A DNA stretch of 61,249 nucleotides, taken from IMG/VR virus record IMGVR_UViG_3300050821_004166, positions 1 to 61,249 of that record. The stretch is one strand, 5' to 3'. The stretch comes from a virus. Within the stretch, counting starts at the first letter, position 1. Each line of letters begins with the position of its first letter. The notes under the pieces are model-generated. The model saw nothing but the letters and a program-made list of their open reading frames with translations, was not told where the DNA came from and searched no databases. Positions 5,818-41,268 of this stretch are shown in pieces. The position numbers and the translations under genes are program-made.

Positions 5818-5818
5818 C

Positions 5819-11383: not shown

Positions 11384-11392
11384 TTGAGGAGT

Positions 11393-14656: not shown

Positions 14657-14663
14657 GGAAGGA

Positions 14664-19709: not shown

Positions 19710-19987
19710 TTGAATCCTCCGGAGAGTGGCGCGACGAACGACTCTGGGTGTTGAAAACGCTAGAGAAGTTAGAGGACGAACAGCGCCGGGAAGTGGAATC
19801 GGCTGCCCTTATGTCGCAAGGGCAGCTAATAAAAGCGAGTAAGGATATCCAGGAAGCGCACATCAAAATCCGGGCTCTCGAGAAGGCCAGGAGGAATCTG
19901 AGCATCAAGTATTGGATCGTGACTGGCGTGCTCTCCGTTGCCACAGCTTTGTTGCTGAAGGTTTTAGAGAGGTACTTTCACCCATGA
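19706..19987 (+). CDS. Coiled-coil protein with a C-terminal TM anchor
   Basis: ATGA overlap with the upstream gene. C-terminal YWIVTGVLSVATALLLKVL. Confidence 0.45.
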   Translation: MIESSGEWRDERLWVLKTLEKLEDEQRREVESAALMSQGQLIKASKDIQEAHIKIRALEKARRNLSIKYWIVTGVLSVATALLLKVLERYFHP

Positions 19988-20673
19988 CCGTGCAAGAACT
20001 TGCCGAGGCCTGCCGGAATATCAGCGAGGACAGCATCAAGAAGCTGAAGATTGAATCCTGGATCTCGATGGAGCTAGGGCGCATCGTCAACCGCAAACAC
20101 TATTTTTGGAGGCGGGCGGCGATCGAGTTTGACACCGTAGCGCAGCAACCCACTTACGACCTCACCGCCGGCCCGAATGCCATTGCGGCAGACTTCATGC
20201 AGATGGGCAGCAACCTGTTCCAGTTCGACGGAACGAACAAGACCGGGGAATTGCAATTCGTGGATGACAACCTGGGATTGCTGAAGATGCGGAAGGGCAC
20301 CACGGTCACTACGCCGTCAGTCTTTAGTATCGAGCTAGGTTCGAACACCAAGACCCTTCGCCTAAGCCCCATCCCGGATACCGTCTATTCCTATGCCGGC
20401 GTCTACTACCGCGGGGCGGTCATCAACTGGAACAGCCCGGACGACGAAGAAATTCCCCTGGTCCCTCCGGAAATGCACTATGTCGTTTACCAGGCCATGG
20501 AGCGGCGAGTGTTCTTCTACCTGTACGGCCAAAAAGACCCCCGTGCGGCGATTGCCGTACAAGCCGAACAGCAGTGTCTTGGAGACCTCGACGCCTACAA
20601 GTCTGGTTCCACAATGCAAGCCTTGGAATGGCGATCAGGGGACCATAACGATTTCGTTCAAAGCACTCGTTGA
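19984..20673 (+). CDS. Putative head-tail adaptor / tail tubular protein A-like structural protein
   Basis: ATGA overlap at 19984. 229 aa, positioned just before the large nozzle-like protein as in the T7 gp11-gp12 order. Confidence 0.4.
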   Translation: MTVQELAEACRNISEDSIKKLKIESWISMELGRIVNRKHYFWRRAAIEFDTVAQQPTYDLTAGPNAIAADFMQMGSNLFQFDGTNKTGELQFVDDNLGLLKMRKGTTVTTPSVFSIELGSNTKTLRLSPIPDTVYSYAGVYYRGAVINWNSPDDEEIPLVPPEMHYVVYQAMERRVFFYLYGQKDPRAAIAVQAEQQCLGDLDAYKSGSTMQALEWRSGDHNDFVQSTR

Positions 20674-24622: not shown

Positions 24623-25990
24623 GTGGGTTTCAATCTTCTGCAATCGGTACTCGGCCAGGGAAACAACGCGACAGACCCGAACGCGCTGATTAAGACGATT
24701 CTCGCCGCTGCTACCCCTCCGGAACCAGACCAGCCGGAACCAGATGCCGGAACAGATCCGGGCGCTGGCGGCGACATGGGGCTTGGTGGGTTGAATCCTG
24801 GTACGCCAGGGTTTGCCGATGTTGCTTCTGCGGGTACCGATGCTGCAACTCCGAGCGCGAGCCCTATCCCCGCAATTCTTGGAACTCCAGCAAACGACCC
24901 GAGCCGAGCTCCATGGGCGCCGAGCACCCCTCCGGGGACTCCTCCGAGTCTCAACGAGGCTCTTCCCCCTGGCGTAATCAAGGAAGTGCTTGCGAATCCT
25001 GGGTTGTACAAGAATCTCAACTCCGTTTTGAACCAGACCCAATCCAAGGTTCCCAAAATGAGACCGCTGGACTACCTGATAGCCGCGGGTACTCCGATAG
25101 CGTCTGCTCTTCTTCAGATGATGACCTCGAGGAAGCGCAGCGATCGAGCTGGAAACTTTGCTGCAGGGTTGGCGAGCGGCGGGTTGCAATCACTCATCGG
25201 CATAGCCGGGCGGCCGGCGGCAGCAGCGCAGGCGCAGCGGCAAGCCGATATCGAGAACATGCTTCTCTTGCACACGTTGCGCGGAAAGCCGCAGGCGAGC
25301 ATCGACTCGGCAACCGGAAAACCGACATGGGCTTTCGAGACTGGCGAGACGATGGGGACGGCGGGCCCGGTTCCGCGGCCAGGAGCGCGAGGCACGGTCG
25401 AGACGAAAGAGGTTACTGACGAATCTGGGGACACACATCAGATCGAGCGAGATCCGACACAAAAGGATTGGCAGCCTTCGATGATGGATGAACCTACGCC
25501 GGCGACGTCCTTCAACAAACAGGGCATCGACATGCCGGCAAGCACGCTGCGTGTCCCGGTCGTCAGCAAGAAGCAGCCGAAAGAGCCTAAGACAGAGGTT
25601 GGTTGGGGCAGCACCGATCCGAACGCAGAGAAGGGCGACACCGAAGAGATGATGCTGGCGCAACCAGGGAAGAAACCGGTTCATCTTGGAATCTTCCGGC
25701 CAACGGCAGGCAGAACGGAAAGCAAGGCGGAAGCGGAAAAGCGGCAAGTGAGCCACTTAGCGGTTCTTGCTCTGCAGGATGCTCATGCGCGAGCGAAGCC
25801 TAACGCCAAACCGGAGGATATCGTCAACGATGCGACAGAGGATTTCCGCAAGAAATCTAACCAGAGCCCTGTTTTGGCTGATAGAGCTAATGCAGTCTCC
25901 TCCGCAATCCGTAACATCGGGCGCAACGTCACGGACAAGAATCAACTCGGAGAGATTTTGGAGAAGTTAACTGAGGGACAAGGGAAGTGA
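24623..25990 (+). CDS. Putative internal virion / core protein
   Basis: 455 aa; Pro/Gly-rich N-terminus followed by a charged region. GTG start 2 nt after the previous stop. Confidence 0.4.
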   Translation: MGFNLLQSVLGQGNNATDPNALIKTILAAATPPEPDQPEPDAGTDPGAGGDMGLGGLNPGTPGFADVASAGTDAATPSASPIPAILGTPANDPSRAPWAPSTPPGTPPSLNEALPPGVIKEVLANPGLYKNLNSVLNQTQSKVPKMRPLDYLIAAGTPIASALLQMMTSRKRSDRAGNFAAGLASGGLQSLIGIAGRPAAAAQAQRQADIENMLLLHTLRGKPQASIDSATGKPTWAFETGETMGTAGPVPRPGARGTVETKEVTDESGDTHQIERDPTQKDWQPSMMDEPTPATSFNKQGIDMPASTLRVPVVSKKQPKEPKTEVGWGSTDPNAEKGDTEEMMLAQPGKKPVHLGIFRPTAGRTESKAEAEKRQVSHLAVLALQDAHARAKPNAKPEDIVNDATEDFRKKSNQSPVLADRANAVSSAIRNIGRNVTDKNQLGEILEKLTEGQGK

Positions 25991-25992
25991 AA

Positions 25993-27000
25993 ATGCCCTT
26001 CTTCAGATCGGTGAAGCAGGTACGGCCCGCGCAAAAGCCGCGGGGAAGCGTATCGCAGTTCATCACCGAGAACTTCCGGCATTTCAATGCTCGAGAACTC
26101 CGGGAAGCCGCCGAGGCCTACAAGCGGCTGGTCGATTCAGGCGGCAAGATGTTTGTAACCGTTGCCGGCGCAATGTCCACCGGAGAACTCGGAATCTCTC
26201 TGGCGAAGATGATTCGAGAGGAGAAGGTTCACGCCATTTGCTGCACGGGCGCCAACCTCGAGGAAGACATTTTCAACCTGGTAGCACACTCTAAATACAA
26301 GGTAATTGCAGGCTACCGGCAGTTGGACAACGACGACGAGAAGAGCATCCATGACGCCGATATGTCGCGTGTGACCGACACGCTCATTCCGGACAAGGCG
26401 GCCATGGACACCGTTTCGAAAGCCATCTTCGATATCTGGAAGCGGGCCGACAAGGAGGGCGAACGGTCGTTCCCGCACGAATACGTCTACCAGTTGTTCC
26501 ATGAGAAGACCTTAGACTTTGACGCCGACCCAGAAGACAGTTGGGTTCTCGCCGCGCACCAGAAGAACCTGCCGCTGTTTGTTCCAGGATGGGAGGATTC
26601 GACGCTAGGGAACATGCTCGCGGGGATGCGGATAAAGGGCGAGATCACTAAGCCGATCGTGAAGGACGGCATCGATTACATGATGGCTCTGGCGAAGTGG
26701 TACGAAGCGGAAAGCGGCGGGAAGGGCGTAGGGTTCTTCCAGATCGGAGGTGGAATTTCCGGCGACTTCTCGATATGCGTGGTTCCACTGCTGAAACTGG
26801 ACTTGAAAAAGACCGTCCCGTTCTGGGCCTACTTCTGCCAGATCAGTGATTCACTTGCCAGCTATGGAGGGTATTCCGGAGCGCCACCGAACGAAAAGAT
26901 CACTTGGGCGAAGATCGACAAGAGCACGCCAACATTTATGATTCAATCGGACGCTTCGATCGTTGCACCGCTTATTTTTGCCTACGTTCTCGAGGAATGA
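25993..27000 (+). CDS. Deoxyhypusine synthase-like (DHS / homospermidine-synthase family) enzyme
   Basis: VTVAGAMSTGELG..AICCTGANLEEDIFN matches the DHS signature TTAGGVEEDLIK. C-terminal NEKITWAKI...DASIVAPLIFAYV matches EAVSWGKI...DASLVFPLLV, including the catalytic Lys. Confidence 0.85.
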   Translation: MPFFRSVKQVRPAQKPRGSVSQFITENFRHFNARELREAAEAYKRLVDSGGKMFVTVAGAMSTGELGISLAKMIREEKVHAICCTGANLEEDIFNLVAHSKYKVIAGYRQLDNDDEKSIHDADMSRVTDTLIPDKAAMDTVSKAIFDIWKRADKEGERSFPHEYVYQLFHEKTLDFDADPEDSWVLAAHQKNLPLFVPGWEDSTLGNMLAGMRIKGEITKPIVKDGIDYMMALAKWYEAESGGKGVGFFQIGGGISGDFSICVVPLLKLDLKKTVPFWAYFCQISDSLASYGGYSGAPPNEKITWAKIDKSTPTFMIQSDASIVAPLIFAYVLEE

Positions 27001-27001
27001 T

Positions 27002-30000
27002 GTGCCGCCGACCGACACCGAGACGACAGAAACTCAGACGCAAGACCCGCTAGATGAGTACCTCGCGCTAAGGGATAAGACTGCGAAAAAGAAGTCTCCG
27101 AAGGAAGACCCAATCGCAGCCTACTTAGCTGCGCGGGAAGCAGACACTAAAGCCACCGACAAGCGATCGGCTGAAGTAGAAGCCAAAGCCGCAGCAACGC
27201 CGGCGGCGGTTCCCGTTGTTTCCCAGAAGATGGAGGAGTCTCCTGCCGGCAAGGGATTCGCAGCAGCAGAGACCGCAGGACAGAAGATATTCGGTGAGCA
27301 GCCGACCCCGGCAACGGTTGCAGCTCGAGGACCGTCATCTCTATTCCAGACGACTCCTCCTGCTCCCCCGCCTCTCCCTCCAGAAACAGTAACCGAGCCG
27401 GTCAAGAGCATGGAGCAGATCGGGCGGGAGTCTCCGTTTGGAAAAGGGACGGCGCCGGCAGAGCTTCCGAAAGATGTTGCCGACCTGAAAGCCTCGATCG
27501 AGGATTCCTCGACCAAGATCAAAGGCACGCAGAACAGGTATCCGAGCGGCATTCCGCAGGAAATCTACCCCTGGTACAAGGACGAGGTTGCCAATCACAA
27601 CCAGATGGTGGCGAGGTTTAACGACGCCATCAAGAAGCTGCCGCCAAGCCAGCGAGCCGAACAGAAGCAAACCCCTCTAAGCACCGCGCCGTTAAGTCTT
27701 TCGCAGCAAGCCGATCGGGTTGGTAAGCCGATGGTCCCCTTGACCGGTCCGCAGAAGCCGATAGACCTGACGAAATACCCGCGGAACATCTTCACAAACG
27801 ACTTGGCTATTCCCGAACAGACTCCCGAGCAGGTGAAAGCTCAGAACGCAGCCGAGGACGCGCAGCGAGCGCAAGACGATGCGTTGTCTCGAGGGAGGCC
27901 GGTATCCAGGACAGGCGTTCGCGGACTGCCGGTAACAAAGAAAGAGCTTGATGACGAGAAAGCGGGGATGGATGAGATCACGCGGGCACTCACGACGGGT
28001 TCGCGCAAGCTGCCGATTCCAGCGTTCACCGGTTTTCAGAAAGGGACAGGTTTGCCGACCGGCGCTAGGGTGTCCAGTGTTGGCGAACTCGAGGACCTGA
28101 CCGACGAATATCTCAGCCGTCCGGAGATCCCGAAGACTCGAGCTCAAGCGATGGCCGCGGGCATAACCTCGGACGCGGTGAAAACGCTGAATGATATGTT
28201 CCTGTCCCCTGTGGGCATCGTGGCGACGGGGACCGGGCTAGTGGCGGCGAACGCGCTGGCGAAAGCTGGACAAGCAGGAAAGGAAGCTCTCGAGCTAGGC
28301 GCCGAGTACCAGGCGATGAAGCGGGCCGGCGCGACCGCTGCGGAGCTTCTGGTACAGGAGGGAAAAATCCATCAGGCCATGCTGTCAGTGGCTAAAGCGC
28401 AAGGCGTGCTAAAGACCGCTGCAAGAGCCGGGCAAGTCGGTGGCGCGGCATTCGGCGCACAGGGCGCGAACGGGGTAATCGATGGAATCAAGGAGCAAGA
28501 CACTTCGAAGATTCTCGGCGGGTTAGGGCAGATCATACTTGCCGGCGCCGGCGAGGCTGCACTTCACCGGGCGGGCGGGCTCGAGTCTGCGGTCGGTGGA
28601 TCCGTCGAAGCGGAAGCGCACCGGCGATACCAAGAATCGTATAAACCTCCAGGGGACGACGACGACGACGAGCCACCGGGCGGGGGACCTCCTCCGGACG
28701 TACACGCGAAGCTGCTCGAGGACGAGCTGCACCGGGCGAAGGCCGAACATTCGGCCAAAATCCTGGAAGATGCGGCTGCAGAGACCAGAAAAGCGGCTGG
28801 AATCGACACAGAGCCACCAGGAGAGCCGGAAAAACCTGCAAAGCTCAAGGTGCCAGTACGCGCCAAAAAGCCCGCCCTGCCTGCCCCTGTTGAGCCAGTT
28901 GGCACAAAAGAAGAGCCGGAATCCTCAAGTGAGGGAGAAAAACAGGAAAAAGCGGTTATTCACACGTTCCCAGGCGAAGAAGGAACTCAGTACGAAGTAG
29001 CGAAGGTCGATGGAGGGTTTTCGGTTTCTCTGCGTGACACGGAAGCCGGCGAGGTATTTCCGTCGCACCGCATTTACAAGACTGAAGAACAAGCGGTAGC
29101 TGCAGCAAAGGGCTTCGGAGAAAAATCGACGGGCGAAGAGGCTAAAAGAAAAGCCGCTGAACCTGAAGCGAAGGAACCAGAACTTTCCGGCGAAGATGCC
29201 GTCACGGCCAAAATCTATCAGGATGCGATCGACCACGACAACGAACTCCTCGCAAACGAAAAGCTAACTTGGGAGAAGCGCGAGAGGATTGTCGAGCATC
29301 GAGACAACTATCAAAAGGACTTGGACAAGATTCAAGGGAGGCGGGTTGAGGATGTCGGACCTCCAGAGTCGAAGGGAGAGCGCCGAGCGATCGAACCGGA
29401 AGCGGAAGGGAGGTTAGAGGAAGCCAAGAGAAAGCGTAAAGCGAATCAAATTGAATTCGAGAAGAAGGCCGGGCAACCAGAGGAAGAAGCCGCGCCGATA
29501 AAGCCAGGCGACAAGATCAAGATGCGCGGTGGCATGAGGCGCCGAAGCATCATGTCAGGCCTGCCGTTAACGGACGAGCCTAGACACCAGCCTGAAGCCA
29601 CAGAGGCGAGCGCACAGCCGACCCCACCGCCGAGCGACCGCTGGACCGCCGACCGCGGTGCGATGCCGGGAGAACCCGAGCTATTCCTGGACGTTCCGGA
29701 GGACGGCGACACCGAGAAGGCCAAGGCTGCGATCATTCAGCGCGATCGGAAAGCGGGCCGTGCCACATGGGAACTCGTTCACATGGAGGGCGGCAAGCCA
29801 AAGAGCGGAGGGATGTTCAGCACGCCGCAAGAAGCCGCAGCTCGCGCCGAGAAACTGTACTCGCCACCAGAAAAGGAAGAACAGCCAGAGCACGTCCACA
29901 AAGAAGGCGACCGCGTAACGTGGACGGGCCCAAAGGGCGAGAAACTCAGTGGACAGATTCGGTCGATCGAACCACATCAGAAAACTGGACCGGATGACCT

Positions 30001-33000
30001 GCGGAAGCCGTTAGCGTCGATCACCGTCGATCAGCAAGCAGTGATGCGGATTCCTGGACGCAAGGGCGGCGTGCCGATCGGGCGCGTCGAGATGGTCCCT
30101 CTCGAGAAACTCAGTCCTGAAGGCGCACCGGAGAAGGCCGAGGCTGCTACCGAATCTGAAAAGAAGCCGGTCGTTCCGTTCTCAAAGCCTCGCCAGGAGG
30201 ACGAAAGAGAACGAGCAAGAGGAATCATTGAGGACTTCGTTGCTAAGTGGGATAGAGAATTCAAAGAGTGGCAAGAGAGCGGTGGACGTGGAGAACCTCC
30301 TCCAAAACCTTTCCAACTAGAGCATCCTCCGGAAGATATTGGCGTTTTCCAGTACATCAAGACGTTGCCAAAACACGTGCAGGAGTATGCCCGCAAGTTT
30401 TACAAAGCCTACAGAGATGAGGGAGTGGCGGCTGGACAGGAGGTTGACCCGAGAGACTATGGGATATCTGGCGAAGAAGCGGAGGAACTCGACGGCATAC
30501 TAAAGCAGCTCACCAAGCCAGGGAAAGCCGCGCCAGAGGAAGAGCCACCGGAGACAGAACCGGAACCAGAGAAGGCTGCCGAACCTGAAAAAAAAGCGGT
30601 CGTTCCGTTCTCGAAGCCAGCAGAAGCGGAGGCGCCGGCTAAGTTTCAAGAAGGCGACTTAGTACGGCTGACTGACGAACCGCACAAAGCTGGAACACTC
30701 ACACGTTTGAGTTTGAGCAAGACTACGGCGGTAGTCAAACTCGAAAACGGAAACACCGTCTATGTTCATCCAGACAGAATCGAACTGCGTGGGAAGCCAG
30801 CGGAGAAACAGAGGTACGTGGTTTCGAAGGCTGGAATGAAGCCGGGCATGTGGAAGATCATAGATACCACAGACGGCACTACAGTCCGTTCAGGGCTCGA
30901 GAGCAAGGCCGGCGCGGAAGCGATTGCTGCCGGCATGAAGTCTGAGGATCAACATATCTCAGGAGCAACGCCGTCAGGGGCAATCACTCCTCGCGTTCCA
31001 CTATCAACGGTAAAGCCGCAAAACAGACCGCATATGGTTGTCCGTGAGGTACGCGACCGCGACGACAAATTGCTTGGATACGAGTATTTCCCATACGACG
31101 GAACGCCAGAGGACGCGCTTGCGAAAGCAGAGTTAGTCACCACGCAGATGTGGGAGAAGTACCCGGACGCCTCCAACATGGGCAGCCGTATTCTCGCAAC
31201 AGGTAAAGACGGCAAACCGCTTTACGTTATGTCTCCCAATTTGCAACACGTCGCAGAGATGGGGACGCCGACAGCGAACTACATCCAGACTGGTGAAGGT
31301 GAACCGCCGGCTGAAATGAAGGCCAGTTACGAGGCAGCAAAGAAAGCAGGCGATGAAGCCGCCGGTAAGGCTCTTTGGTGGAGAAAGCCTCTTCCGAAGC
31401 TAGACGCAGACACCGAATACAAACTCCTGAAATTGATACACCCGAAGGAGGGACAGGTCGGAGCTGCCGAGCTAAGGAGAAGGTACAGAATTAACTACGG
31501 AGAGACGATAGATCAGGGCATTGTTGCTCAGTTCCTTAAAGAGCAAGAAGGATTGACACAAACTGGCGCAGGTGCCAAACTCCCGACCAAGAGCTTTGCT
31601 CCGCAGGTAATCGCTGACTCAAGCGGAAAATGGAGCGGGAACGCAGTCAGCTTTCCTACGGAACAGGAAGCCCAGGATTACGTCAACGACCTTAAAAGCC
31701 GTTGGATGGCCGTCCGTGACACTCGCGTAGTTGAGCAGGACGTTCCGGCTACTCATTCCTTTGCGAATGGCAAGCTGGAAATAGTCAAACCGGAGGAAGC
31801 CGATGCCGCCACCGCCGATCAAGCCGCCGACCGAGAAGGATCTGGACGAGATAGTGGTACAGCCGAGCCTGCTCGAGTCGGTCAAGAGCCATTGGAAAGA
31901 GAATCTTCCGAAGCTATACAAGGCGTACCAGAAGAGCGGGAAGCTGCAGGAGAAGGCGAAGAGGGCGGTGCAGGAGGCGAAGTATCTGGCCGCGAGCCTG
32001 GTGGCGCAGGGACAGGAATGGTCCGAGGCGTGGGTGACAGCCTCGAGGGAAAAGATGTACCTGGAACCAGAGGAAAGCCTGGACGACCAGGAATCAGCCG
32101 AGTAAACCCGTCAGACGGTCCGCAAGGCAATTTCTACCACATCACGGAATCCGACCAGCTAGGCCAGGCCGGCCTAAAGCAGAAGTTCAAAGACAACGTA
32201 ACAGCGATCAAGCTGCTGCAAAAGCTCGAAGCCGAGAACCGCCTCGCCACCACTGCGGAGCAAGCCGTTCTTGTGAAGTACGTCGGATGGGGCGGGTTAT
32301 CGGCTGTCTTCAAACCATGGGAAGACCGGCAATGGACGAAAGAATCCGATGAGCTTAGGGACCTGCTTCCTAGCGCCGAGTGGGAGGCAGCCAGCGGCAG
32401 CACGCAGTTTGCCCATTACACCTCGCTCGAAGTGATTCAAGGGATGTGGAGCGCACTCGAGCGCATGGGGTTCACTGGCGGGCGCGTTCTCGAGGATGCT
32501 GCCGGCGTGGGGCACTTCATGGGTGGCGCCCCTCTGGATGTTGCAGCGAAATCGAAGTGGGCGGCGGTCGAGATCGACCCTCTCTCAGCACGTATCACAC
32601 AGCAGCTCTACCAGCCGGTCAAGGTCTTCAACAGCCCCTTTGAGAAGGTGGCGTTCCCGAATAACTTCTTTGACGTGAACATCACGAACGTACCATTCTC
32701 CACGACCTCGCCGGCAGACCCCAAGTACGACAAGTATGGCTTGAACCTGCACAACTATTTCATCGTCCGCGGACTCGACCTGCTACGGCCGGGCGGGATT
32801 ATGGCCGTTATCACTTCCCGCGGGACGATGGATTCAGGCGGCAAGCACCGTGAACTGATGGCCGACCGCGCCGACCTCCTGGATGCCGTGCGGCTGCCCA
32901 AGACAGCGTTCAAAGGGAACGCCAATACCGAAGTGGTTGCGGACGTCCTGATATTCCGGAAGCGGGCGCCGGGAGACCCCAAGGGCGGCGAGGCCTTCCA

Positions 33001-36000
33001 GGACTCCATCCGAATGAAAGTCGAGAAGGACGGAAGCACGCACGTTGTTCCCGAGCGTGCAGATCCCTCCGACTTCAAGTTGAATGAATTCTTCCTGAAG
33101 CATCCCGAGAAGATTCTCGGCCAGCAAGGCATGACCGGGACGATGCGCGGGCCAGATCAATACTCCGTCGAACCTAACACCGCCACGACACTGAAGGAGC
33201 AAATCAGCAAGAACCTCACTCCTCCGCAAAACTCCTATCAGAAGGCCTCGGCATCGCAATCTCTCAGGATCGAAGCCGTCCTGTCCGCAGAGCGCCAGGC
33301 CGAAATCAAAGCCAAACCGGATGCTCTACACATCGAGGGCGACAAGCTCTACCAGAACACGGCAGAGAATCTGCTGACCATAACCTCGATCGGAGAAATT
33401 CTTGTAACTCCTCGTTCAGAGTGGGTGTACGCGCTGAAGCCTCTCGACGTCAGCCCGCCAGTGTTTCGCAAGATCAAGAGCGTGCTTGGCGTGCGGGATG
33501 CTGTGCGGGATGTGATGCTGGCGGAAGCTGCCGACAAACCCAAAGTAGAAGTTGACGCGCTTCGCAAGCAGCTCAACAAGACCTATGACAAGCACGTTGC
33601 GACCTACGGGCCCACTGGCGACGTTTCGAACACGAAGCAGCTCCTCATGGATCCGGACTTCCCGCTGCTGATATCTCTCGAGTCTTACGACCCGAAGACG
33701 AACACCTACGTAAAATCTGCTGACATTTTCACGAAGCCGACTGTGCGTCCGGAGATGACCGTGCGTCCGGAGAATCCTCGAGACGCCATGCTGGTTTCGA
33801 TGAACGAGAAGAATGGCATCGATATCCCGTTCATGGCGAAATCGATCGGGCAGACCGAGGATTACGTCATCAACGACCTGGTGGGTAAGGACCTCATCTA
33901 CAAAAACCCTGAAGGCGGTTGGGAGGACAGCGCGAGTTATCTGTCTGGACAGGTACGGTGGAAGCTAAAGGCAGCGCAGACCGCCGCGGAACTCGACCCA
34001 GACATGCAGCGCAACGTCGAGGCGCTAAAAGCGGTTCAGCCTCAAGACAAAACTTTGGCTAATCCTCCAGCAGTGAAGTTGGGCACGCCTTGGATGCCCG
34101 TGGGAGACATCGAGCAATTCATCAGAGAAACGCTGGATTTGGGAAGGTCTGTATCGGTATCGCACCCCAAAGGAGTGCCGCTTTGGACCGTTAGGCATCC
34201 GAACAAGGACACTTCCGTTATGAATGGCGCCAATTACGGAATCCAGGATGAATCCGGAACCCCCATTTTGTGGGGAACGGACCTTGTTGAACATGCGCTA
34301 AATCAGAAGACTCCTAGCGTTTACACCGGCAAAGGAGAGCAACGAGTGTTCAGTCTTGACCTGACCGAGAGGGCGAAGGACAAGATAAGCGATCTTCAGG
34401 ACAAGTTCAAAAAATGGATCTGGAAGGACGAGGAAAGAAGCTCACGCCTGCTCGATTACTACAACGAGAACATCAACAACATGGCGCAGCGGACCTACGA
34501 TGGTTCGCACCTGACGATTCCGAGCATGGCGCTAGGGATGACTATGCGGGCCCATGGGAAAAATGCTGTGTGGCGCATCCAGCAATCCGCTAACACGTTG
34601 CTGGCGCATGAGGTAGGCAGCGGCAAGACCATGATTCTTATAGCGTCAGCTCTAGAGGCGAAGCGTCTCGGAAAGTGGAAGAAGCCGGCATTGTTTGTTC
34701 ACAACGCCACGCTCGAGCAATACCGGATGCTGATTCCGCAGGCATTTCCGACCGCCAAGATTCTAGTAGCCAGGCCGGAAGACTTTGACAAAGAAAACCG
34801 CCGGCGCCTTCTTGCGCGAATAGCGACTGGCGATTGGGATACGGTCGTCATAGCGCACTCCCAGATACCGAAGCTGCCAGTGTCGGAAGCCGGCCTGCGT
34901 AAATTCATGGGAGACGAGATCGAGATTCTCAAAGGGTATCTGCGAAAGATACAAATGGAGGAGGCTTCAGCTTACCATGACTCCGGCGGGCGAGGAGGGA
35001 AACGGCAGAAGAGCCAAACTGTAAAACAGTTGGAAGCGACGATCGACAAAGCCGAGGCCCGCATGGAAAAGAAGATCCATGACTACAACGCTGACCCAAC
35101 GGTGTCGTTCGAAGAAACGGGCATAGACGCGATTCTGGTGGACGAGGCTGACGAGTTTAAGAATCTGATGTACCACACCAAAATGACCAGGGTGAAAGGC
35201 CTCGGCAATACCGAGGGCTCTAGCCGGGCGTTCGACCTGTACGCCAAGATCCGCGTCGTTCAGGCGATGAACAACGGCGGCGGCGTGGTATTTGCCACTG
35301 GAACGCCGGTTAGCAACACCATGGCGGAAATTTACAACCTGCAGCGGTATCTCGCTCAAGGCGACCTTGAAGCAATGGGGATTGACCACTTCGACGCTTG
35401 GGCAGCGCAATTCGGAGAGACGAAAACCGATTGGGAGACTTCTCCTAGCGATCCGACGAAAATTCAGGCAGTTACCAGGTTTGCCCGCATCCAGAACGCG
35501 CAGGAACTCTATAACCACACCGCGCCGTTTATGGATGTGGTGTTCTCGAAGGACATTCCGGGAATCAAGCTGCCCAAACACAACCAGCAGAAGATAGTGG
35601 TTCCGAGCTATAAGGAACTCGAGGACTACAACCATGAAATCATGGACCGGGCCGAGCATGTCAAAACCGGCCAGGTAGACCCCAAAGACGACAACATGCT
35701 GAAGATCACCAGCAACGGGAGTGCTGCGGCGATCGATATGCGATTCGTTAAGCCGGGCAGCGCAGTGAATCCCGCGTCCAAGCTCTACCATGTGGCGCTA
35801 GATGTTTACAAGAATTGGAAAGACTCGGCAGCCAACAAAGGTGTGCAGCTAATCTGCCTTGATTTGGGAGTGCCCGACACTAGGAGCGTGTCGGCGGGAG
35901 AACTGAAGTTTGGAGCGTATAAGTGGTTGCGCGAGCACCTTATCTCTATGGGTATTCCGGGAGATGAGATCACCTGGATACAGAAGTACAACAAGCCTGA

Positions 36001-39000
36001 AGCCAAGCAGCAGATGATTCGAGACACCAATTCCGGCAAGATCAGGGTGCTTATCGGTTCCACCGAAAAAATGGGAGTCGGGTTGAACGTCCAGGAACGA
36101 CTCATCGGCGGGCATCACGTTGACATGAAATGGCGCCCGCGGGACGCCATTCAGCGCGAAGGGCGATGGGTGCGTCAAGGTAACAGCAATTCCGAGGTGT
36201 TCACGAAGTATTGGACGGCGGAAAAGAGCATCGATTCCTACAAGTATTCGACCCTGGCCGCAAAAATTTCGTTCATCAATGACTTCCTGCAAGGCAAGAT
36301 CACCGCGTCCGATGTGGAAGATATCAGCGGAGAGGCGGTAACGTTCGCAATCATCAGCGCGGCGACCACCGGCAAGACGGAAATCTTCGAATTGGCGAAG
36401 ACCCAGGCAGAGATTCGCAAGCTCGAGCGGGCTCGTTTTGCTGCCGAGACGGAGCTTTTAGGAATCAAACAGCAGTTGGTGCACGGAAAAGCCCGTCTGA
36501 AAGCTACCCAGGAAGAGATAGAGCAAGCCAAGACCGAAGTGGAAGCCGTCAAGAAAGTCTACGATCCGGAAAACTTCCAGATCACGCTAAACGGGAAGCT
36601 CTACACCGACAAAGAAGAAGCTAAGAAGGCTTTGCAAAAAACAGTCTTAACGCTAAAAGACAGACAGACCATGGGGACACAGATCATTGGTTCCTACCTG
36701 GGAGTGCCGATCACTTTCGATGGACATGGGGCAGAGTTAGGAAAAGACGGAAAGCGCAGTTGGTACGGGTACAACGTTAAAACTCCGCGTCGGTCTGTGG
36801 CAATCGAACACACCACTACCGGAACGTTATTCGATGACCCTATAGCCAGTGTTATTCACGGAGTCGTGAGAGCGCCTGAGAACGACCTCGAGAAAGACAT
36901 TGCGGAAAAAGCCACGCTCAAGCAAGACATTCCCAAACTTGAGGAACTGTTAAACAAAACAGACTTTCCTCCAGAGAAGGCCAAAAAGCTCGAGGAATTG
37001 CAAGTGAAGGAGAGAGGACTCCTGAAGGCGCTAGGCTTGCTCGATGACGACACCCAAGCGGCGGGCGCGATTGCCAGCGGCAAAACCGATGTAACCGTCA
37101 CCGGAGCAGAAGGAGACAAGGAGGAAGACGACGAGGAGGGAGCGGTAGGCGCACCAGAAGGCGAGCCAGAACCACCAGACAAACCAGAGGTTGGCGCCGG
37201 CAATAAGCTGTTCACCAAGGAAGCCAAAGAAGCCGCAGAAAAGGACCTCAGTAAGAAGAGTCGGGAAATGCGTGCCGGCGTGGATCCCACCATGATTAAG
37301 GACCTGGTGGTAATCGGTGGCTTCTATCTCGAGGCTGGCATCCGAGACTTCGCTGGTTGGGCCGACAAGATGCGGGCGCACTTCCGCAAGACCAGAGACC
37401 CCCAGAAGTTTGAACCGCACCTGCAGCCAATCTACGAGCAGGCGATCAAGGCCATCAACAAGCAGAAGCCGGGATTCGCGGCCAACATCCGTCTTTCGAA
37501 CCTCCGGACCTCGGACCAGGTAAAGGAACTGATTCGAGAGACCGCACGCTCCGCTGCCGGCCGAATCGAGGGGCAACGCCGCGGCGAGGTGCCGTTCGCG
37601 CAAACCAAGGCCATGGCTCGAGAGCTAATCCGCGAAGGGCACATGACCGAGAAGGACCTCATCGACATGAAGAAGGGGACGGCGCTAAACGATGCCGAGC
37701 TAAAGGCTGCCCGTTCCATCCTGGTGTCGGTGAGCGAGGACCGCGCCAAAGCTCTGGATGAATTCCGGAAGGACGACAGCAAGGAGAACCTGCTCCGGGT
37801 TATGGAAGTGGTTGAACGTCAGCGGGCCGTCCAGGCTGCCGTCAGTGGCGCCACCGCGGAAGCTGGCCGAGCTCTGAACAGCATGAAGATAGCCGCCGAG
37901 GCGCTGAAGTCTCGATCGGCACGCGATAAGGCGCTGGACGAGCTAGGCGGGGACATTACCGAGGAGATGATTCGCAGGCTCGCGCAGATCCCGCCAGATG
38001 ACTTCATCGCCATGAACAAGTTTGTCCGGGACCACACCAAGTTTACGACCATTGAGAAGCTGAATTCCTACTGGATAGCGAACATCCTCTCCGGTTGGCA
38101 GACTCACGCTCGAGTCGCGTTCTCTAACATCGTGTGGGCGACCACGCAGCTAGGCATCCGTCCCCTCCGCGGGTTGATTGACGCGCCGGTATCGCGCCTG
38201 ATGGGTACCGAGCGCAAATACTATGCCGGGGAAACCCTGCCGGCCATGGTTGGATGGTTTGAGGGGATTCCTGAAGGACTGCGGAAAGCCATCTTTATCA
38301 TGCAGCACGGCTACAACCTTGACGACACCTCGGGCGAGATCGTTACCGACGTCAAGGCACCGCGGTATTACGAATTCCCTGGCGGGCTGAAGAACCCGTT
38401 CAACTATCCGGGCCGGGCGCTAATGGCCGCGCACAACCTTTTCCGCGTGACGAGTCTCGAGAGCGAACTGGCTGCGATTGCAGCTCGAAAGGCAATCCGG
38501 AGCGGCGGCGTCAGTCCGACATTGGGCCAAAGCCGTTACCAAAAGCAATATGCCCGCGAGCGAGCGAATCCGGAAGTGGAAGACGTGGAAGCAGCACAGA
38601 AGTTTGCGCGGTACACCGCGTTCCTGGATAAGCCGGATAAGTTCTCTCAGTTGATGATTCGCATACGGGAATGGCGAGTGCCCGAGAACTACGCTGCGAT
38701 CGGAGGAGTGAAGCCGCTGCGGTTTGTGGTGCCGTTCATCAATCTGCCTTGGAACGTCTTGAAGGCAGGCGTGGAGGTAACACCTGCAGGCGCACTCAAG
38801 TTCTTGTCGAAAGATGCCCGCAACCAGCCAGGCAAGGCAGCCGACATTATTTCGAAGGCGCTATTCGGTGCTGCCGTGATGGGTGCCGCGGCCATCCTGG
38901 CTATGAACGGGAAGCTAACCGGGCCTGCTCCAAAAGACCCAGGCAAGAGGGAGGAATTCTACCGGCTTGGGAAAAAGCCCTATGCCTTCCGAGTGGGCGA

Positions 39001-39790
39001 CCGCTGGTATCCCTATCTGCGATGGTCCGGGCCGTTCGGGGTGGCGATTGCGGTGACGGCGGCGTGGTACGACAAATACGACGCTGATGGCACGATACCG
39101 AGCACCGAGCGGCTGACGAACGCAGCCTCGGCGGTCGGGCGGGCGACGTTCGACCAGTCCTATTTCGTCGGAATCGCCAACATGCTCGATTCGATCAGGG
39201 AAGGGAAGGCATCCACAACGAAGTTCCTCGCGGACATAGCTACCGGCTTTGTGCCGTTCTCCGGGATGCAGCGCAACATCGTGCAGCAGACCGATATCCA
39301 GAGAATAGCTAAGTCGATTCCCGAGAAGGTTGCTTCCGGGATTCCTGTTCTTTCGAAGACTCTCTCACCGCAGCGCGATATCTTCGGCAGGACCAGCGAG
39401 CAAGGCATCACCGGGACCGCGAGTAAAGACCCCGTTGACCTCGAGCTGGAGAGAATCGGCATTCATCCTGAACCGCTGAAAGACAAGATCACCATAAAGC
39501 CGATCGAGTTTGAGCTTTCCCCGAAGGGCGAAGACTTCTACACCAGGACGACGGGCAGACTGCTTTACAAGATGCTTGCCGAGACGATGAAGAGCGAGGA
39601 ATACACTGGTGCCACCGACTTTGTGAAGCAGAAGTACGTGGAACGCGAGGTTGGCAGAGTGCGCGAGGCCGGCAGGTTGGCGATGTTGGCGCAGTTGAAG
39701 AGCCATCCGGAGTACGCCGCCAGTCCGATGTTCAAGATCAAGGTTCCGTTCGCGCACAAGGCGCCGGTATCCGCGCCAGGGAGGCAGTAA
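27002..39790 (+). CDS. Giant polyvalent protein (about 4,262 aa): N6-adenine DNA methyltransferase plus SNF2/DEAD helicase core (P1 DarB-like) with long flanking regions; probably a virion-ejected core protein
   Basis: MTase motifs AHYTSLEVIQGMW, VLEDAAGVGHF and FDVNITNVPF (about 32130-32900). Helicase motifs EVGSGKT (about 34615), LVDEADEF (about 35140), ATGTPVSN, GVGLNVQ and QREGRWVRQGN (about 36150). TM-like helices near 38860-39070. GTG 27002 follows GAGGA; TTG 26963 would overlap the DHS gene. Confidence 0.8.
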   Translation: MPPTDTETTETQTQDPLDEYLALRDKTAKKKSPKEDPIAAYLAAREADTKATDKRSAEVEAKAAATPAAVPVVSQKMEESPAGKGFAAAETAGQKIFGEQPTPATVAARGPSSLFQTTPPAPPPLPPETVTEPVKSMEQIGRESPFGKGTAPAELPKDVADLKASIEDSSTKIKGTQNRYPSGIPQEIYPWYKDEVANHNQMVARFNDAIKKLPPSQRAEQKQTPLSTAPLSLSQQADRVGKPMVPLTGPQKPIDLTKYPRNIFTNDLAIPEQTPEQVKAQNAAEDAQRAQDDALSRGRPVSRTGVRGLPVTKKELDDEKAGMDEITRALTTGSRKLPIPAFTGFQKGTGLPTGARVSSVGELEDLTDEYLSRPEIPKTRAQAMAAGITSDAVKTLNDMFLSPVGIVATGTGLVAANALAKAGQAGKEALELGAEYQAMKRAGATAAELLVQEGKIHQAMLSVAKAQGVLKTAARAGQVGGAAFGAQGANGVIDGIKEQDTSKILGGLGQIILAGAGEAALHRAGGLESAVGGSVEAEAHRRYQESYKPPGDDDDDEPPGGGPPPDVHAKLLEDELHRAKAEHSAKILEDAAAETRKAAGIDTEPPGEPEKPAKLKVPVRAKKPALPAPVEPVGTKEEPESSSEGEKQEKAVIHTFPGEEGTQYEVAKVDGGFSVSLRDTEAGEVFPSHRIYKTEEQAVAAAKGFGEKSTGEEAKRKAAEPEAKEPELSGEDAVTAKIYQDAIDHDNELLANEKLTWEKRERIVEHRDNYQKDLDKIQGRRVEDVGPPESKGERRAIEPEAEGRLEEAKRKRKANQIEFEKKAGQPEEEAAPIKPGDKIKMRGGMRRRSIMSGLPLTDEPRHQPEATEASAQPTPPPSDRWTADRGAMPGEPELFLDVPEDGDTEKAKAAIIQRDRKAGRATWELVHMEGGKPKSGGMFSTPQEAAARAEKLYSPPEKEEQPEHVHKEGDRVTWTGPKGEKLSGQIRSIEPHQKTGPDDLRKPLASITVDQQAVMRIPGRKGGVPIGRVEMVPLEKLSPEGAPEKAEAATESEKKPVVPFSKPRQEDERERARGIIEDFVAKWDREFKEWQESGGRGEPPPKPFQLEHPPEDIGVFQYIKTLPKHVQEYARKFYKAYRDEGVAAGQEVDPRDYGISGEEAEELDGILKQLTKPGKAAPEEEPPETEPEPEKAAEPEKKAVVPFSKPAEAEAPAKFQEGDLVRLTDEPHKAGTLTRLSLSKTTAVVKLENGNTVYVHPDRIELRGKPAEKQRYVVSKAGMKPGMWKIIDTTDGTTVRSGLESKAGAEAIAAGMKSEDQHISGATPSGAITPRVPLSTVKPQNRPHMVVREVRDRDDKLLGYEYFPYDGTPEDALAKAELVTTQMWEKYPDASNMGSRILATGKDGKPLYVMSPNLQHVAEMGTPTANYIQTGEGEPPAEMKASYEAAKKAGDEAAGKALWWRKPLPKLDADTEYKLLKLIHPKEGQVGAAELRRRYRINYGETIDQGIVAQFLKEQEGLTQTGAGAKLPTKSFAPQVIADSSGKWSGNAVSFPTEQEAQDYVNDLKSRWMAVRDTRVVEQDVPATHSFANGKLEIVKPEEADAATADQAADREGSGRDSGTAEPARVGQEPLERESSEAIQGVPEEREAAGEGEEGGAGGEVSGREPGGAGTGMVRGVGDSLEGKDVPGTRGKPGRPGISRVNPSDGPQGNFYHITESDQLGQAGLKQKFKDNVTAIKLLQKLEAENRLATTAEQAVLVKYVGWGGLSAVFKPWEDRQWTKESDELRDLLPSAEWEAASGSTQFAHYTSLEVIQGMWSALERMGFTGGRVLEDAAGVGHFMGGAPLDVAAKSKWAAVEIDPLSARITQQLYQPVKVFNSPFEKVAFPNNFFDVNITNVPFSTTSPADPKYDKYGLNLHNYFIVRGLDLLRPGGIMAVITSRGTMDSGGKHRELMADRADLLDAVRLPKTAFKGNANTEVVADVLIFRKRAPGDPKGGEAFQDSIRMKVEKDGSTHVVPERADPSDFKLNEFFLKHPEKILGQQGMTGTMRGPDQYSVEPNTATTLKEQISKNLTPPQNSYQKASASQSLRIEAVLSAERQAEIKAKPDALHIEGDKLYQNTAENLLTITSIGEILVTPRSEWVYALKPLDVSPPVFRKIKSVLGVRDAVRDVMLAEAADKPKVEVDALRKQLNKTYDKHVATYGPTGDVSNTKQLLMDPDFPLLISLESYDPKTNTYVKSADIFTKPTVRPEMTVRPENPRDAMLVSMNEKNGIDIPFMAKSIGQTEDYVINDLVGKDLIYKNPEGGWEDSASYLSGQVRWKLKAAQTAAELDPDMQRNVEALKAVQPQDKTLANPPAVKLGTPWMPVGDIEQFIRETLDLGRSVSVSHPKGVPLWTVRHPNKDTSVMNGANYGIQDESGTPILWGTDLVEHALNQKTPSVYTGKGEQRVFSLDLTERAKDKISDLQDKFKKWIWKDEERSSRLLDYYNENINNMAQRTYDGSHLTIPSMALGMTMRAHGKNAVWRIQQSANTLLAHEVGSGKTMILIASALEAKRLGKWKKPALFVHNATLEQYRMLIPQAFPTAKILVARPEDFDKENRRRLLARIATGDWDTVVIAHSQIPKLPVSEAGLRKFMGDEIEILKGYLRKIQMEEASAYHDSGGRGGKRQKSQTVKQLEATIDKAEARMEKKIHDYNADPTVSFEETGIDAILVDEADEFKNLMYHTKMTRVKGLGNTEGSSRAFDLYAKIRVVQAMNNGGGVVFATGTPVSNTMAEIYNLQRYLAQGDLEAMGIDHFDAWAAQFGETKTDWETSPSDPTKIQAVTRFARIQNAQELYNHTAPFMDVVFSKDIPGIKLPKHNQQKIVVPSYKELEDYNHEIMDRAEHVKTGQVDPKDDNMLKITSNGSAAAIDMRFVKPGSAVNPASKLYHVALDVYKNWKDSAANKGVQLICLDLGVPDTRSVSAGELKFGAYKWLREHLISMGIPGDEITWIQKYNKPEAKQQMIRDTNSGKIRVLIGSTEKMGVGLNVQERLIGGHHVDMKWRPRDAIQREGRWVRQGNSNSEVFTKYWTAEKSIDSYKYSTLAAKISFINDFLQGKITASDVEDISGEAVTFAIISAATTGKTEIFELAKTQAEIRKLERARFAAETELLGIKQQLVHGKARLKATQEEIEQAKTEVEAVKKVYDPENFQITLNGKLYTDKEEAKKALQKTVLTLKDRQTMGTQIIGSYLGVPITFDGHGAELGKDGKRSWYGYNVKTPRRSVAIEHTTTGTLFDDPIASVIHGVVRAPENDLEKDIAEKATLKQDIPKLEELLNKTDFPPEKAKKLEELQVKERGLLKALGLLDDDTQAAGAIASGKTDVTVTGAEGDKEEDDEEGAVGAPEGEPEPPDKPEVGAGNKLFTKEAKEAAEKDLSKKSREMRAGVDPTMIKDLVVIGGFYLEAGIRDFAGWADKMRAHFRKTRDPQKFEPHLQPIYEQAIKAINKQKPGFAANIRLSNLRTSDQVKELIRETARSAAGRIEGQRRGEVPFAQTKAMARELIREGHMTEKDLIDMKKGTALNDAELKAARSILVSVSEDRAKALDEFRKDDSKENLLRVMEVVERQRAVQAAVSGATAEAGRALNSMKIAAEALKSRSARDKALDELGGDITEEMIRRLAQIPPDDFIAMNKFVRDHTKFTTIEKLNSYWIANILSGWQTHARVAFSNIVWATTQLGIRPLRGLIDAPVSRLMGTERKYYAGETLPAMVGWFEGIPEGLRKAIFIMQHGYNLDDTSGEIVTDVKAPRYYEFPGGLKNPFNYPGRALMAAHNLFRVTSLESELAAIAARKAIRSGGVSPTLGQSRYQKQYARERANPEVEDVEAAQKFARYTAFLDKPDKFSQLMIRIREWRVPENYAAIGGVKPLRFVVPFINLPWNVLKAGVEVTPAGALKFLSKDARNQPGKAADIISKALFGAAVMGAAAILAMNGKLTGPAPKDPGKREEFYRLGKKPYAFRVGDRWYPYLRWSGPFGVAIAVTAAWYDKYDADGTIPSTERLTNAASAVGRATFDQSYFVGIANMLDSIREGKASTTKFLADIATGFVPFSGMQRNIVQQTDIQRIAKSIPEKVASGIPVLSKTLSPQRDIFGRTSEQGITGTASKDPVDLELERIGIHPEPLKDKITIKPIEFELSPKGEDFYTRTTGRLLYKMLAETMKSEEYTGATDFVKQKYVEREVGRVREAGRLAMLAQLKSHPEYAASPMFKIKVPFAHKAPVSAPGRQ

Positions 39791-40572: not shown

Positions 40573-41268
40573 ATGGCAAAGGCGAAGCCTGCACCAGAGA
40601 CAGAACAAAAAGCGATAGTTCTACAATCAGGGCTCTCGATCGAGGACCTTGCTGTAGAACTTGGACCGTTCATGCAGAGCGTGGACGCGCAGCTCGACTC
40701 AGAAGATCCCGCCATGCAGGAGACTGCAACGCTGTTCTCGCGGGAACTGGTTGGCGCGATGCTGGAGAAGGGAGACATTCTTACCCATAGCGGGAGCAAA
40801 CAAGCAAATCCGCTTGCCGTCCGCGACCGCGTGGCCGAGCTATACTTCGCGTTCTTGGACCTGGCAGCGCGGATCCGCAGAGGCGTGCAGCAGGCTGAAC
40901 TTATGGCCCGCCGGCAGGAACGCTTCGCAGAGATCATCCGGAGCAACATCGAGGCCTGGATGCTGACCTCCTGGAACGCGAAGAAGATCACCGGGAACTA
41001 CCGGGAGTTTCGCATCAGCAAGAATCCCGACAAGGTAATGGTCATTGATGAAGCGCAGATTCCCGCGGAGTATTTCGATGACGTTCCCGCAACCAAGGTG
41101 CTCAACAAGACGCGGTTGGCCGAGGCGCTGAAAGCGCGTGAGGTCGTCAAGCAAGAAGTCATCAAGGACGAAAAGCTCACGCCAGAAGAGCGGGAACAGT
41201 CCCTAAAGCAAATCGCCATTCCCGGCGCTATCCTCGAGACTTCCAGGACCAGACTCGATATCAAGTAG
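40573..41268 (+). CDS. Siphovirus Gp157-like protein (recombination-module accessory)
   Basis: The C-terminal pattern FRISKNPDKVMVIDEAQIPAEYF...LNKTRLAEALKA...IPGAILETSRTRLDIK is typical of the Gp157 family. Confidence 0.55.
   Translation: MAKAKPAPETEQKAIVLQSGLSIEDLAVELGPFMQSVDAQLDSEDPAMQETATLFSRELVGAMLEKGDILTHSGSKQANPLAVRDRVAELYFAFLDLAARIRRGVQQAELMARRQERFAEIIRSNIEAWMLTSWNAKKITGNYREFRISKNPDKVMVIDEAQIPAEYFDDVPATKVLNKTRLAEALKAREVVKQEVIKDEKLTPEEREQSLKQIAIPGAILETSRTRLDIK

Follow-up and report, generated by a model that had tools for sequence, protein, structure and literature searches.

The window analysed here, that is, the whole 61,249-nucleotide (nt) stretch of IMG/VR virus record IMGVR_UViG_3300050821_004166, contains one giant open reading frame (ORF) on the + strand, which encodes a protein of 4,262 amino acids (aa). 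This giant is probably a "polyvalent" protein that a short-tailed phage with a capsid of SU10 type packages in its virions and ejects. As far as sequence comparison goes, it is shown to be a four-part mosaic, made of an N-terminal module, a region of charged linkers and small domains, a DarB-type core and a C-terminal module of ~780 aa. By the same comparisons it is a divergent variant of the giant virion protein known from Bcep22-like phages and not a new kind of system. An earlier note on this DNA, made without database searches, had described a single ORF filling about 21% of the genome; at 27002-39790 it takes up 12,789 nt, or 20.9% of the window. The coordinates of all features are collected in Table 1.

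A DarB-like methyltransferase-helicase core

Profile comparison confirms that the core of the giant protein belongs to the DarB-like family. In PHROGs, phrog_10089 ('DarB-like antirestriction') matches aa 1552-3344 over profile positions 1433-3208 (E=0, 1,397 bits). A tblastn search against 50,697 phage records gave 144 records matching the core, and the top matches, at ~33% identity across ~1,600-1,700 aa, are the single giant genes of ~60-kb podophages. Among the matching records are Erwinia phages PEp14 and Pavtok, Klebsiella phages LASTA and SopranoGao, Pseudomonas phage Itty13, many Ralstonia phages, Burkholderia phage DC1 and the 38.7-kb Vibrio phage VvAW1. P1 DarB is matched as well, with 34% identity in the methyltransferase (E 2e-23) and 27% in the helicase (E 2e-11); the helicase blocks, at 26-30%, are colinear with residues 778-1638 of P1 DarB. 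These three results bear out the DarB-like methyltransferase-helicase proposed in the earlier note.

The motifs quoted there are all present where they had been placed. The methyltransferase region contains AHYTS (aa 1804, nt 32411), VLEDAAGVGHF (aa 1829, nt 32486, with motif I LEDAAGVGHF from aa 1830) and NITNVPF (aa 1893, nt 32678, with motif IV TNVPF from aa 1895). The helicase region contains GSGKT (aa 2539, nt 34616), DEADEF (aa 2714, nt 35141), ATGTPVSN (aa 2765, nt 35294) and QREGRWVRQGN (aa 3051, nt 36152). In Pfam the methyltransferase region gave an Eco57I match above the cut-off of that family, and the helicase region gave SNF2-rel_dom and Helicase_C matches slightly under their curated cut-offs. 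The core is apparently an intact DarB-type N6-adenine methyltransferase joined to a superfamily 2 (SF2) helicase. An alignment with P1 DarB and six giants supports the assignment of the methyltransferase motifs. Such a methylase-helicase dyad is a hallmark of polyvalent proteins, which are packaged and injected (Iyer et al. 2017, PMC5512222). The same authors place an LPD36 domain directly N-terminal of the methyltransferase of the dyad; no LPD family matched the giant protein in Pfam at E<0.01, and its homology with the other giants starts ~70-230 aa ahead of the methyltransferase.

With P1 DarB (2,255 aa) the core shares domain order, colinear helicase motifs and the NVPF form of motif IV. 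This form is found in the giant core, in P1 DarB (GNVPF) and in L092, a second IMG/VR contig (IMGVR_UViG_3300029911_000077, 40.9 kb), as against NPPF (GNPPF) in the Bcep22-type giants. For P1 DarB and the giant protein alike, action in cis on the DNA that enters would be expected. Unlike the window phage, P1 is a myovirus, in which DarB is internal to the head and depends on the DarA operon, and P1 DarB has neither the carrier module nor the 1,700-aa N-terminal extension of the giant protein. A distance tree built on the ~1,400 columns in common puts the window core with the podophage giants, on a deep branch of its own and distant from P1 DarB. A special kinship with the core of L092 was considered and rejected, the two being separate deep branches in the tree.

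The small domain at aa 3401-3461, which precedes the C-terminal module, is found N-terminal of the core in PEp14 (aa 1242-1302; E 4e-8). This difference in placement points to domain shuffling.

Relation to the giant proteins of Bcep22-type phages

The class to which the giant protein is most readily compared comprises Bcep22 gp75, JC1 gp69, DC1 gp67, PEp14 gp27, LASTA gp01, Ralstonia phage Gerry gp28 and Vibrio phage VvAW1 gp01. These proteins are 3,640-4,914 aa long and each is encoded by about a fifth of a ~60-kb genome. Their methylase-helicase cores are colinear with that of the window protein at the identity given above, their genes are the last big ones of the virion module, and they are free of cysteine. 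An enzyme gene lies just upstream, for a PAPS reductase or an acyltransferase there and for a deoxyhypusine synthase (DHS) homologue here. PAPS-reductase-like and acyl-CoA N-acyltransferase genes were seen, amid genes for virion proteins, in Bcep22-type, Ralstonia and Klebsiella relatives (L012 685-1407; L013 58-495 and 1330-2055; L011 1-427). JC1 gp69, of 4,515 aa, ends the virion module of its 61-kb genome, of which it makes up 22%, and mass spectrometry of CsCl-purified virions gave 51 unique peptides of it (PMC9144972). The novelty implied by the earlier note was overstated, because the class was already known from Bcep22 gp75 and JC1 gp69.

The window protein differs from this class at both ends. 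A phrog_6651 module replaces the C-terminal PLxRFG/tail-700 domain (NF032893), to which the giant protein gave no match while PEp14 scores 1e-216 (aa 4228-4901); a profile built from the PLxRFG ends of five giants recovered all five and not the window protein. There is no N-terminal lytic-transglycosylase signal: no match was found in the giant protein, whereas aa 57-166 of PEp14 give weak MltC/IagB matches. The phages differ too, since the window capsid is of SU10 type, the core stands on its own branch and no other window ORF matches PEp14.

A C-terminal module of the internal virion protein family

The last ~780 aa of the giant protein match phrog_6651, labelled 'internal virion protein' (PHROGs, E 3e-19). 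A hidden Markov model of the C-terminal family covers aa 3467-4247 (E 1e-230) and so ends 15 aa ahead of the stop. The earlier note had given this part ~850 aa; a distinct C-terminal part does exist, and its homology-defined extent is shorter. The hydrophobic segment resembling a transmembrane helix that was noted near the C-terminus is likewise present, at aa 3946-3972, and its Gly/Ala-rich stretch aa 3950-3968 is conserved across the module family.

In the phage records, the last 862 aa match only five entries, two of them annotated 'internal virion protein D' in T7-like phages. One homologue is gp34 of the Autographiviridae roseophage CRP-804, in which the capsid gene is followed by those for tail tubular proteins A and B, then by a pair of small genes, a 707-aa gene and gp34; by this order gp34 occupies the gp16 position. 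CRP-804 gp34, the giant protein and the 1,499-aa protein P0006 all fall in phrog_6651, and T7 gp16 falls in phrog_342. In a set of 5.8 billion proteins, 34 homologues carry or overlap the module (P0001-P0034), and aa ~3490-4240 align at 24-29% identity and ~85% coverage with the C-terminal halves of proteins of 1,000-1,500 aa. Members of the module family with names at NCBI come from Sphingomonadales. P0006 (L002-L004) is the last phage-like gene ahead of the bacterial genes SLT_2, PBP5, tmk, holB, metG and TatD; since these are ordinary bacterial genes, the module family is also present in prophages.

An AlphaFold2 (AF2) model of the module is all-helical, with a predicted local distance difference test score (pLDDT) of 71.9 and a predicted template modelling score (pTM) of 0.61. 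Searched with Foldseek against BFVD, it gave 55 matches at E<=1e-3, the best at 2.5e-21 and the best ones mostly unnamed. They include internal virion proteins of cyanophages S-CBP2, S-CBP3 and S-RIP1 and of pelagiphage EXVC018P (E 1e-11 to 1e-17), together with C-terminal chunks of proteins annotated as ART-PolyVal, MuF C-terminal, LPD or nuclease. The family is large: a profile search of 1.84 billion representatives gave 27,311 clusters (50% identity) at E<=1e-3 and 17,782 at E<=1e-30. The module is always C-terminal, on proteins of ~800-3,800 aa. For each of the top 150 among the 27,311 representative clusters, the match stops ~10-200 residues short of the protein end. The module is C-terminal in the ORF at 80 IMG/VR loci, and it forms the extreme C-terminus in all 73 IMG/VR ORFs that are complete within their locus, behind N-terminal extensions of 85 to 3,373 aa.

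The window protein thus shares with the phrog_6651 proteins (CRP-804 gp34 and those of S-CBP2/3, S-RIP1 and EXVC018P) a homologous helical module of ~750 aa at the extreme C-terminus. Those proteins are cysteine-free and encoded after tail-tube or nozzle genes and small internal-protein genes. They are 800-1,500 aa long with short or different N-termini, unlike the window protein, whose N-terminal extension is of 3,466 aa and contains a DarB core. The earlier note's fusion of the enzymes to a putative ejection module is supported by the phrog_6651 membership, the homology with CRP-804 gp34 and the BFVD fold matches.

The module was also considered as a homologue of gp16 or of PLxRFG, and this was rejected. 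Profile comparison (hhalign) gave probabilities of 0.1% with T7 gp16, 0.1% with SU10 gp24 and 0.1-0.8% with the PEp14 C-terminus or the five-sequence PLxRFG profile, and Foldseek and sequence searches of the PDB gave no match to the module. Pfam gave no match to it in any of 31 scanned family members.

Cysteine avoidance

The giant protein contains a single cysteine, where ~66 would be expected at the 1.55% of the other window ORFs (Poisson P~1e-27). The giants of PEp14 (4,914 aa), LASTA, DC1, Gerry and VvAW1 have none. Neither do T7 gp15 and gp16 (L007 4326-10552, 2,065 aa together), all five of SU10 gp20-24 (L099 21102-30095, 2,956 aa together), CRP-804 gp34 and 31 of the 34 proteins that carry or overlap the C-terminal module, the remaining three having one or two. 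Other structural proteins of SU10 and T7 (portal, terminase, fibre, nozzle) do contain cysteine. In the structural block of the window, the only other sizeable ORFs without cysteine are those at 13367-14656 and 24623-25990; the DHS homologue that adjoins the giant gene has four.

SU10 gp20-24 are present in virions and gone from particles that have released their genome (PMC9509320). We infer that cysteine avoidance marks proteins which have to pass, unfolded, first the tail channel and then the oxidising periplasm, and complete absence of cysteine may serve to recognise ejected proteins. In the literature, a text search on ejection proteins and cysteine surfaced no paper on cysteine absence.

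Phage type and gene order

The window has 83 plausible ORFs, every one on the + strand, and no tRNA gene was found in it. The earlier note had taken the phage for a T7-type one; the capsid protein (PF17236, SU10_MCP) and the adaptor (PF24175, SU10_adaptor) instead assign it to the SU10 type. No family match to a T7-type RNA polymerase or DNA polymerase was found among the ten large ORFs scanned, a minority of the total. The large terminase was not identified, the ORF at 9572-11383 being without Pfam, PHROG, PDB or phage match, and megablast of 20-44 kb against phages gave no match.

From the adaptor onwards the genes follow in the order adaptor, probable nozzle, five small ORFs, the cysteine-free 455-aa ORF, the DHS homologue and the giant gene. 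The 653-aa ORF is the probable counterpart of the SU10 nozzle by size and order. No family matches were found for the cysteine-free ORFs at 24623-25990 and 13367-14656. With the giant gene the large genes of the structural block come to an end, and the small ORFs after it are of non-structural type. The late operon of SU10 closes with the genes for the ejection proteins gp20-24, the very last of which encodes the largest (gp24, 1,473 aa; PMC9509320). As the giant gene is placed like SU10 gp24, the positional argument of the earlier note holds, with a frame of reference that is SU10-like and not T7-like. The position that it had called gp16-type, after adaptor, probable nozzle and small ORFs, therefore stands, without detectable similarity to T7 gp16 itself. 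Like T7 gp16 and SU10 gp24, which have no cysteine, the giant protein would be the last and largest protein of an ejection-protein block, with a presumed role at the inner-membrane end of the ejection conduit.

The gene directly upstream had been read as a small core protein and is instead a homologue of DHS, with its stop codon 1 nt ahead of the giant gene start. Its alignment spans the full length of archaeal DHS structures, and the lysine of the conserved ...W(G/A)KI motif, which we take to be the catalytic one, is present. Its closest relatives (~61% identity) come from other phage-like contigs that have capsid genes of SU10 type, namely L096 (59 kb), L097 (62 kb) and L098 (43 kb), and it has no match in the 50,697 GenBank phage records; a 2023 survey reported that viruses and phages were without any homologue of DHS/SpeY (PMC9992855). 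The DHS homologue was considered as a specific modifier of the giant protein. This idea was downgraded, because on those three contigs the neighbour of the DHS gene is not a giant gene: it has the portal gene on one side and the capsid gene on the other, with genes for a glycosyltransferase and a radical-SAM/SPASM protein nearby. Homologues of the window ORFs at 6665-7801, 8837-9469 and 16969-17868 are present in L096, and that of 6665-7801 also in L097 and L098; the epimerase is unmatched there. The sugar and modification enzymes in the structural block hint at glycosylation or another post-translational modification of the virion.

Table 1. Features of the window and of the giant ORF (positions in nt of the window; aa, residues of the giant protein)
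Feature	Position	Strand	Remarks
Glyco_trans_1_2	6665..7801	+	
NAD-dependent epimerase/dehydratase	7929..8840	+	
S-adenosylmethionine (SAM) methyltransferase	8837..9469	+	
429-aa cysteine-free ORF just ahead of the capsid gene, probably scaffold	13367..14656	+	
Major capsid protein, SU10 type	14628..15992	+	PF17236 SU10_MCP, E 2.3e-27
Family-2 glycosyltransferase	16969..17868	+	
SU10-type adaptor, start of tail/ejection block	19912..20673	+	PF24175 SU10_adaptor, E 1.3e-11
653-aa probable nozzle/hub protein	20680..22641	+	~34% identity with an 835-aa post-adaptor gene in L096; weak 'head closure Hc3' PHROG match
455-aa ORF, no cysteine, two genes ahead of the giant gene	24623..25990	+	candidate partner ejection protein
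337-aa deoxyhypusine-synthase homologue	25987..27000	+	PF01916, E 3.7e-41
Giant ORF, 4,262 aa	27002..39790	+	GTG start; one cysteine in total
Pro/Ala/Thr/Lys-rich N-terminus, probably disordered, aa 1-233	27002..27700	+	homologues not found
Conserved N-terminal module with Gly/Ala-rich amphipathic helices, aa 234-546	27701..28639	+	common to P0035 and P0036
Charged K/E/P-rich linkers and small modules, aa 547-1711	28640..32134	+	no family match
DarB-like methyltransferase-helicase core, aa 1712-3344	32135..37033	+	colinear with the giants of PEp14, LASTA, DC1, Gerry, VvAW1 and L092 and with P1 DarB
Gamma-class N6-adenine DNA methyltransferase domain, aa 1780-2000	32339..33001	+	HYTS, motif I LEDAAGVGHF, motif IV TNVPF
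SF2/SNF2-type helicase, aa 2520-3100	34559..36301	+	GSGKT, DEADEF, ATGTPVSN, QREGRWVRQGN
Small domain before the C-terminal module, aa 3401-3461	37202..37384	+	homologous domain in PEp14 and in an L015 protein
All-helical C-terminal module, phrog_6651 'internal virion protein' family, aa 3467-4247	37400..39742	+	putative ejection/carrier module
Hydrophobic Gly/Ala-rich helix in the C-terminal module, aa 3946-3972	38837..38917	+	kept across the family; candidate membrane-inserting segment
Sipho_Gp157	40573..41268		among the small non-structural-type ORFs after the giant gene
Second, separate DNA methyltransferase, non-structural region	57296..58750	+	PF01555 N6_N4_Mtase, E 6e-16

The N-terminal region

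The N-terminal 1,500 aa had no tblastn match among the phage records, and their only homologues in the 5.8-billion-protein set are P0035 (1,741 aa) and P0036 (2,323 aa), whose N-termini are 48-53% identical to aa 234-546. A second segment, aa 864-961, is common to P0035. Both proteins are free of cysteine and both end in a third, different C-terminal region. P0035 is encoded close to one end of a 264-kb contig, where integrase genes abound, and P0036 on a phage-like contig with homologues of window ORFs 22638, 23508, 9572 and 11384. The Gly/Ala-rich region described in the earlier note is there, aa 401-600 containing 31-40% of these two residues. An AF2 model of the aa 234-546 module (three sequences) reached a pLDDT of 44.7 and was unusable.

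Further along, VVPFSKP occurs twice (aa 1057 and 1200), beta-beta-alpha units with the signature [FY]x[ST]xEQA recur at aa ~692, 938 and 1551, and aa ~1600-1700 form a Gly/Ala linker of acidic character. In Pfam, PHROGs and tblastn searches no family match was obtained for aa ~550-1700, including the SH3/KOW-like inserts and small alpha/beta modules that had been supposed there, and family scans of the unassigned segments found no extra effector domain.

Proposed mechanism and alternative readings

If the giant protein is packaged and ejected, a few copies of it would be built into the capsid interior late in infection. On adsorption, it would exit through the portal and nozzle channel, either ahead of the DNA end or together with it, in the form of an unfolded "beads-on-a-string" chain comparable to the 3,500-aa virion RNA polymerase of N4 (PMC13434306). 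The linkers and the scarcity of cysteine fit passage through a narrow channel and an oxidising periplasm. The C-terminal module, probably with the cysteine-free 455-aa neighbour, may join or anchor at a conduit spanning the envelope, like the proteins in the gp16 position. The refolded methylase-helicase at the site of genome entry would then track along the DNA and methylate or shield it in cis against type I-like restriction, like P1 DarB (PMC5512222). The N4 polymerase gp50 (~3,500 aa) is similar in being a giant multi-domain enzyme that the capsid carries and that leaves by way of the tail, its domains loosely connected, to act on the incoming genome (PMC13434306). The window protein differs from it in having a methylase-helicase as its core, and no RNA-polymerase family match was found in Pfam and PHROG scans, which involved no direct comparison with gp50.

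Several points weigh against this reading. Packaging, ejection, methylation and anti-restriction are all inferred for the giant protein. The first 1,700 aa are all but unaccounted for. In Pfam, the matches to helicase and N6_Mtase are weak, some being under curated cut-offs. T7 gp16 and SU10 gp24, the structurally characterised ejection proteins, have no detectable sequence, profile or fold similarity to it; no lytic-transglycosylase domain was found in it and it has no PDB match by sequence or fold. The 'internal virion protein' label of phrog_6651 comes from annotation and position, and no proteomic proof was found for the family. P1 DarB contains nine cysteines, and cysteine avoidance is therefore not a property of DarB as such.

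The helicase could instead be mainly a motor for DNA internalisation, an SF2 translocase that the C-terminal module anchors at the inner-membrane end of the ejection conduit and that pulls the genome in, with methylation as a by-product or secondary function and anti-restriction not primary. We hold this to be unlikely. In T7, pressure drives only part of genome entry and the remainder is enzyme-driven. The same point is made in the SU10 study (PMC9509320). The SF2 motifs are intact, the hydrophobic helix of the C-terminal module is conserved, and the scan of ten large ORFs, a minority of the ORFs, turned up no other obvious motor for internalisation. Set against this, P1 DarB, the only relative studied experimentally, is an anti-restriction factor and dispensable for DNA entry (PMC5512222), and many phages with the same C-terminal module carry other N-terminal cargo and no helicase.

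There is a slight chance that the giant protein is an unpackaged cytoplasmic late enzyme of DNA modification or remodelling that acts on DNA at the replicating or packaging stage and lies at the end of the structural operon by chance. The gene directly upstream encodes a metabolic-type enzyme, the DHS homologue, and glycosyltransferases, an epimerase and a methyltransferase are scattered in the structural block. With enzymes interspersed in this way, position alone is no proof of a virion location. A cytoplasmic enzyme would however leave unaccounted for the near-total cysteine avoidance shared with proven ejection proteins and not with the adjoining DHS enzyme, the membership of the C-terminal module in an internal-virion-protein family, and the association of homologous giants with virions by mass spectrometry.

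The earlier note had envisaged that the ORF might be an assembly concatenation, and a chimeric joining of several genes during assembly or gene calling would indeed undermine the packaged and ejected protein proposed here. The contig does come from a metagenome assembly, and the joins at aa ~546-864 and ~961-1620 are covered by no independent homologue. Nevertheless the giant ORF is real, and an artefact is very improbable. The frame is unbroken on the + strand from TTG 26963 or GTG 27002 to the stop at 39788-39790, 12.8 kb without stop or frame break. GTG 27002 begins 4 nt past GAGGAA (26992-26997) and 1 nt past the TGA of the upstream ORF, which makes the 4,262-aa reading reasonable. Guanine-cytosine content is uniform along the ORF, terminator-like sites within it are not more frequent than expected by chance, and no notable tandem repeats were found in it or at its domain joins. 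Window nt 1-97 are repeated at 61153-61249, so that the contig closes on itself and the assembly is circularly closed (or terminally redundant), a complete genome of ~61,152 bp. The length is also in keeping with the 3,600-4,900 aa usual among DarB-like giants.

Independent sequences cover much of the protein. On L092, a single ORF of 3,799 aa (1046-12445) holds a DarB core and the same C-terminal module; its core is 32% identical to that of the window and 35% to those of VvAW1, LASTA and PEp14, and sequence comparison indicates that it carries the fusion independently. This combination of DarB core and phrog_6651 module was otherwise found only there. The L092 giant also has a RelA/SpoT-like (alarmone synthetase) domain at aa 714-797, and an endolysin gene lies ~7 kb downstream of it. 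A 692-aa protein on a 79-kb contig (P0002; L001 10001-12079, ENA ERZ27253225) matches only aa 3024-3748, at 48% identity, and so crosses the join from the C-lobe of the helicase to the first third of the C-terminal module; no close relatives of this join were found in the IMG/VR scan. P0002 looks like what a rearrangement has left of a giant gene, or else like an assembly break. Its surroundings are non-structural genes, and it stands beside 68%-identical homologues of window ORFs 332-1051 and 2214-3218, one of which is inverted and overlaps its end. PEp14-type proteins match aa 1620-3344 colinearly. Taken together, L092, P0002 and this colinearity argue strongly against a chimera for aa 1620-4262, while the N-terminal joins are without independent cover.

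A tape-measure role was rejected, as no long-tail genes were seen, the homologues are in podophages and a ruler of 4,262 aa would imply an implausibly long tail.

Possible carriers and cargo

DarB-like giants have been known since Bcep22 in one architecture only, composed of lytic transglycosylase, core and PLxRFG. What is new is the same ~1,600-aa enzymatic core in a lineage with an SU10-type capsid and on another C-terminal module, which in environmental T7-like phages belongs to the internal virion protein of the gp16 position. The giants of the window and of L092 fit a view of carriers and cargo as interchangeable parts. Carried further, phrog_6651 might be a general "ejection ticket" of short-tailed phages that loads almost any N-terminal cargo, of <100 to ~3,400 residues, and delivers it through the tail, with strict cysteine avoidance as its hallmark, and the window cargo would sit at the cytoplasmic mouth of the conduit, reeling in and marking the genome. 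We offer this as a speculation that is probably too broad; if true, the giant protein would couple DNA entry to counter-defence.

The finding represents no new kind of system, and the counter-defence role of the giant protein is putative. Its interest, which we consider moderate, lies in the swappable C-terminal modules, the size of the phrog_6651 family and the cysteine signature, since proteins almost devoid of cysteine may be recognisable as ejected ones in the genomes of uncultured phages.

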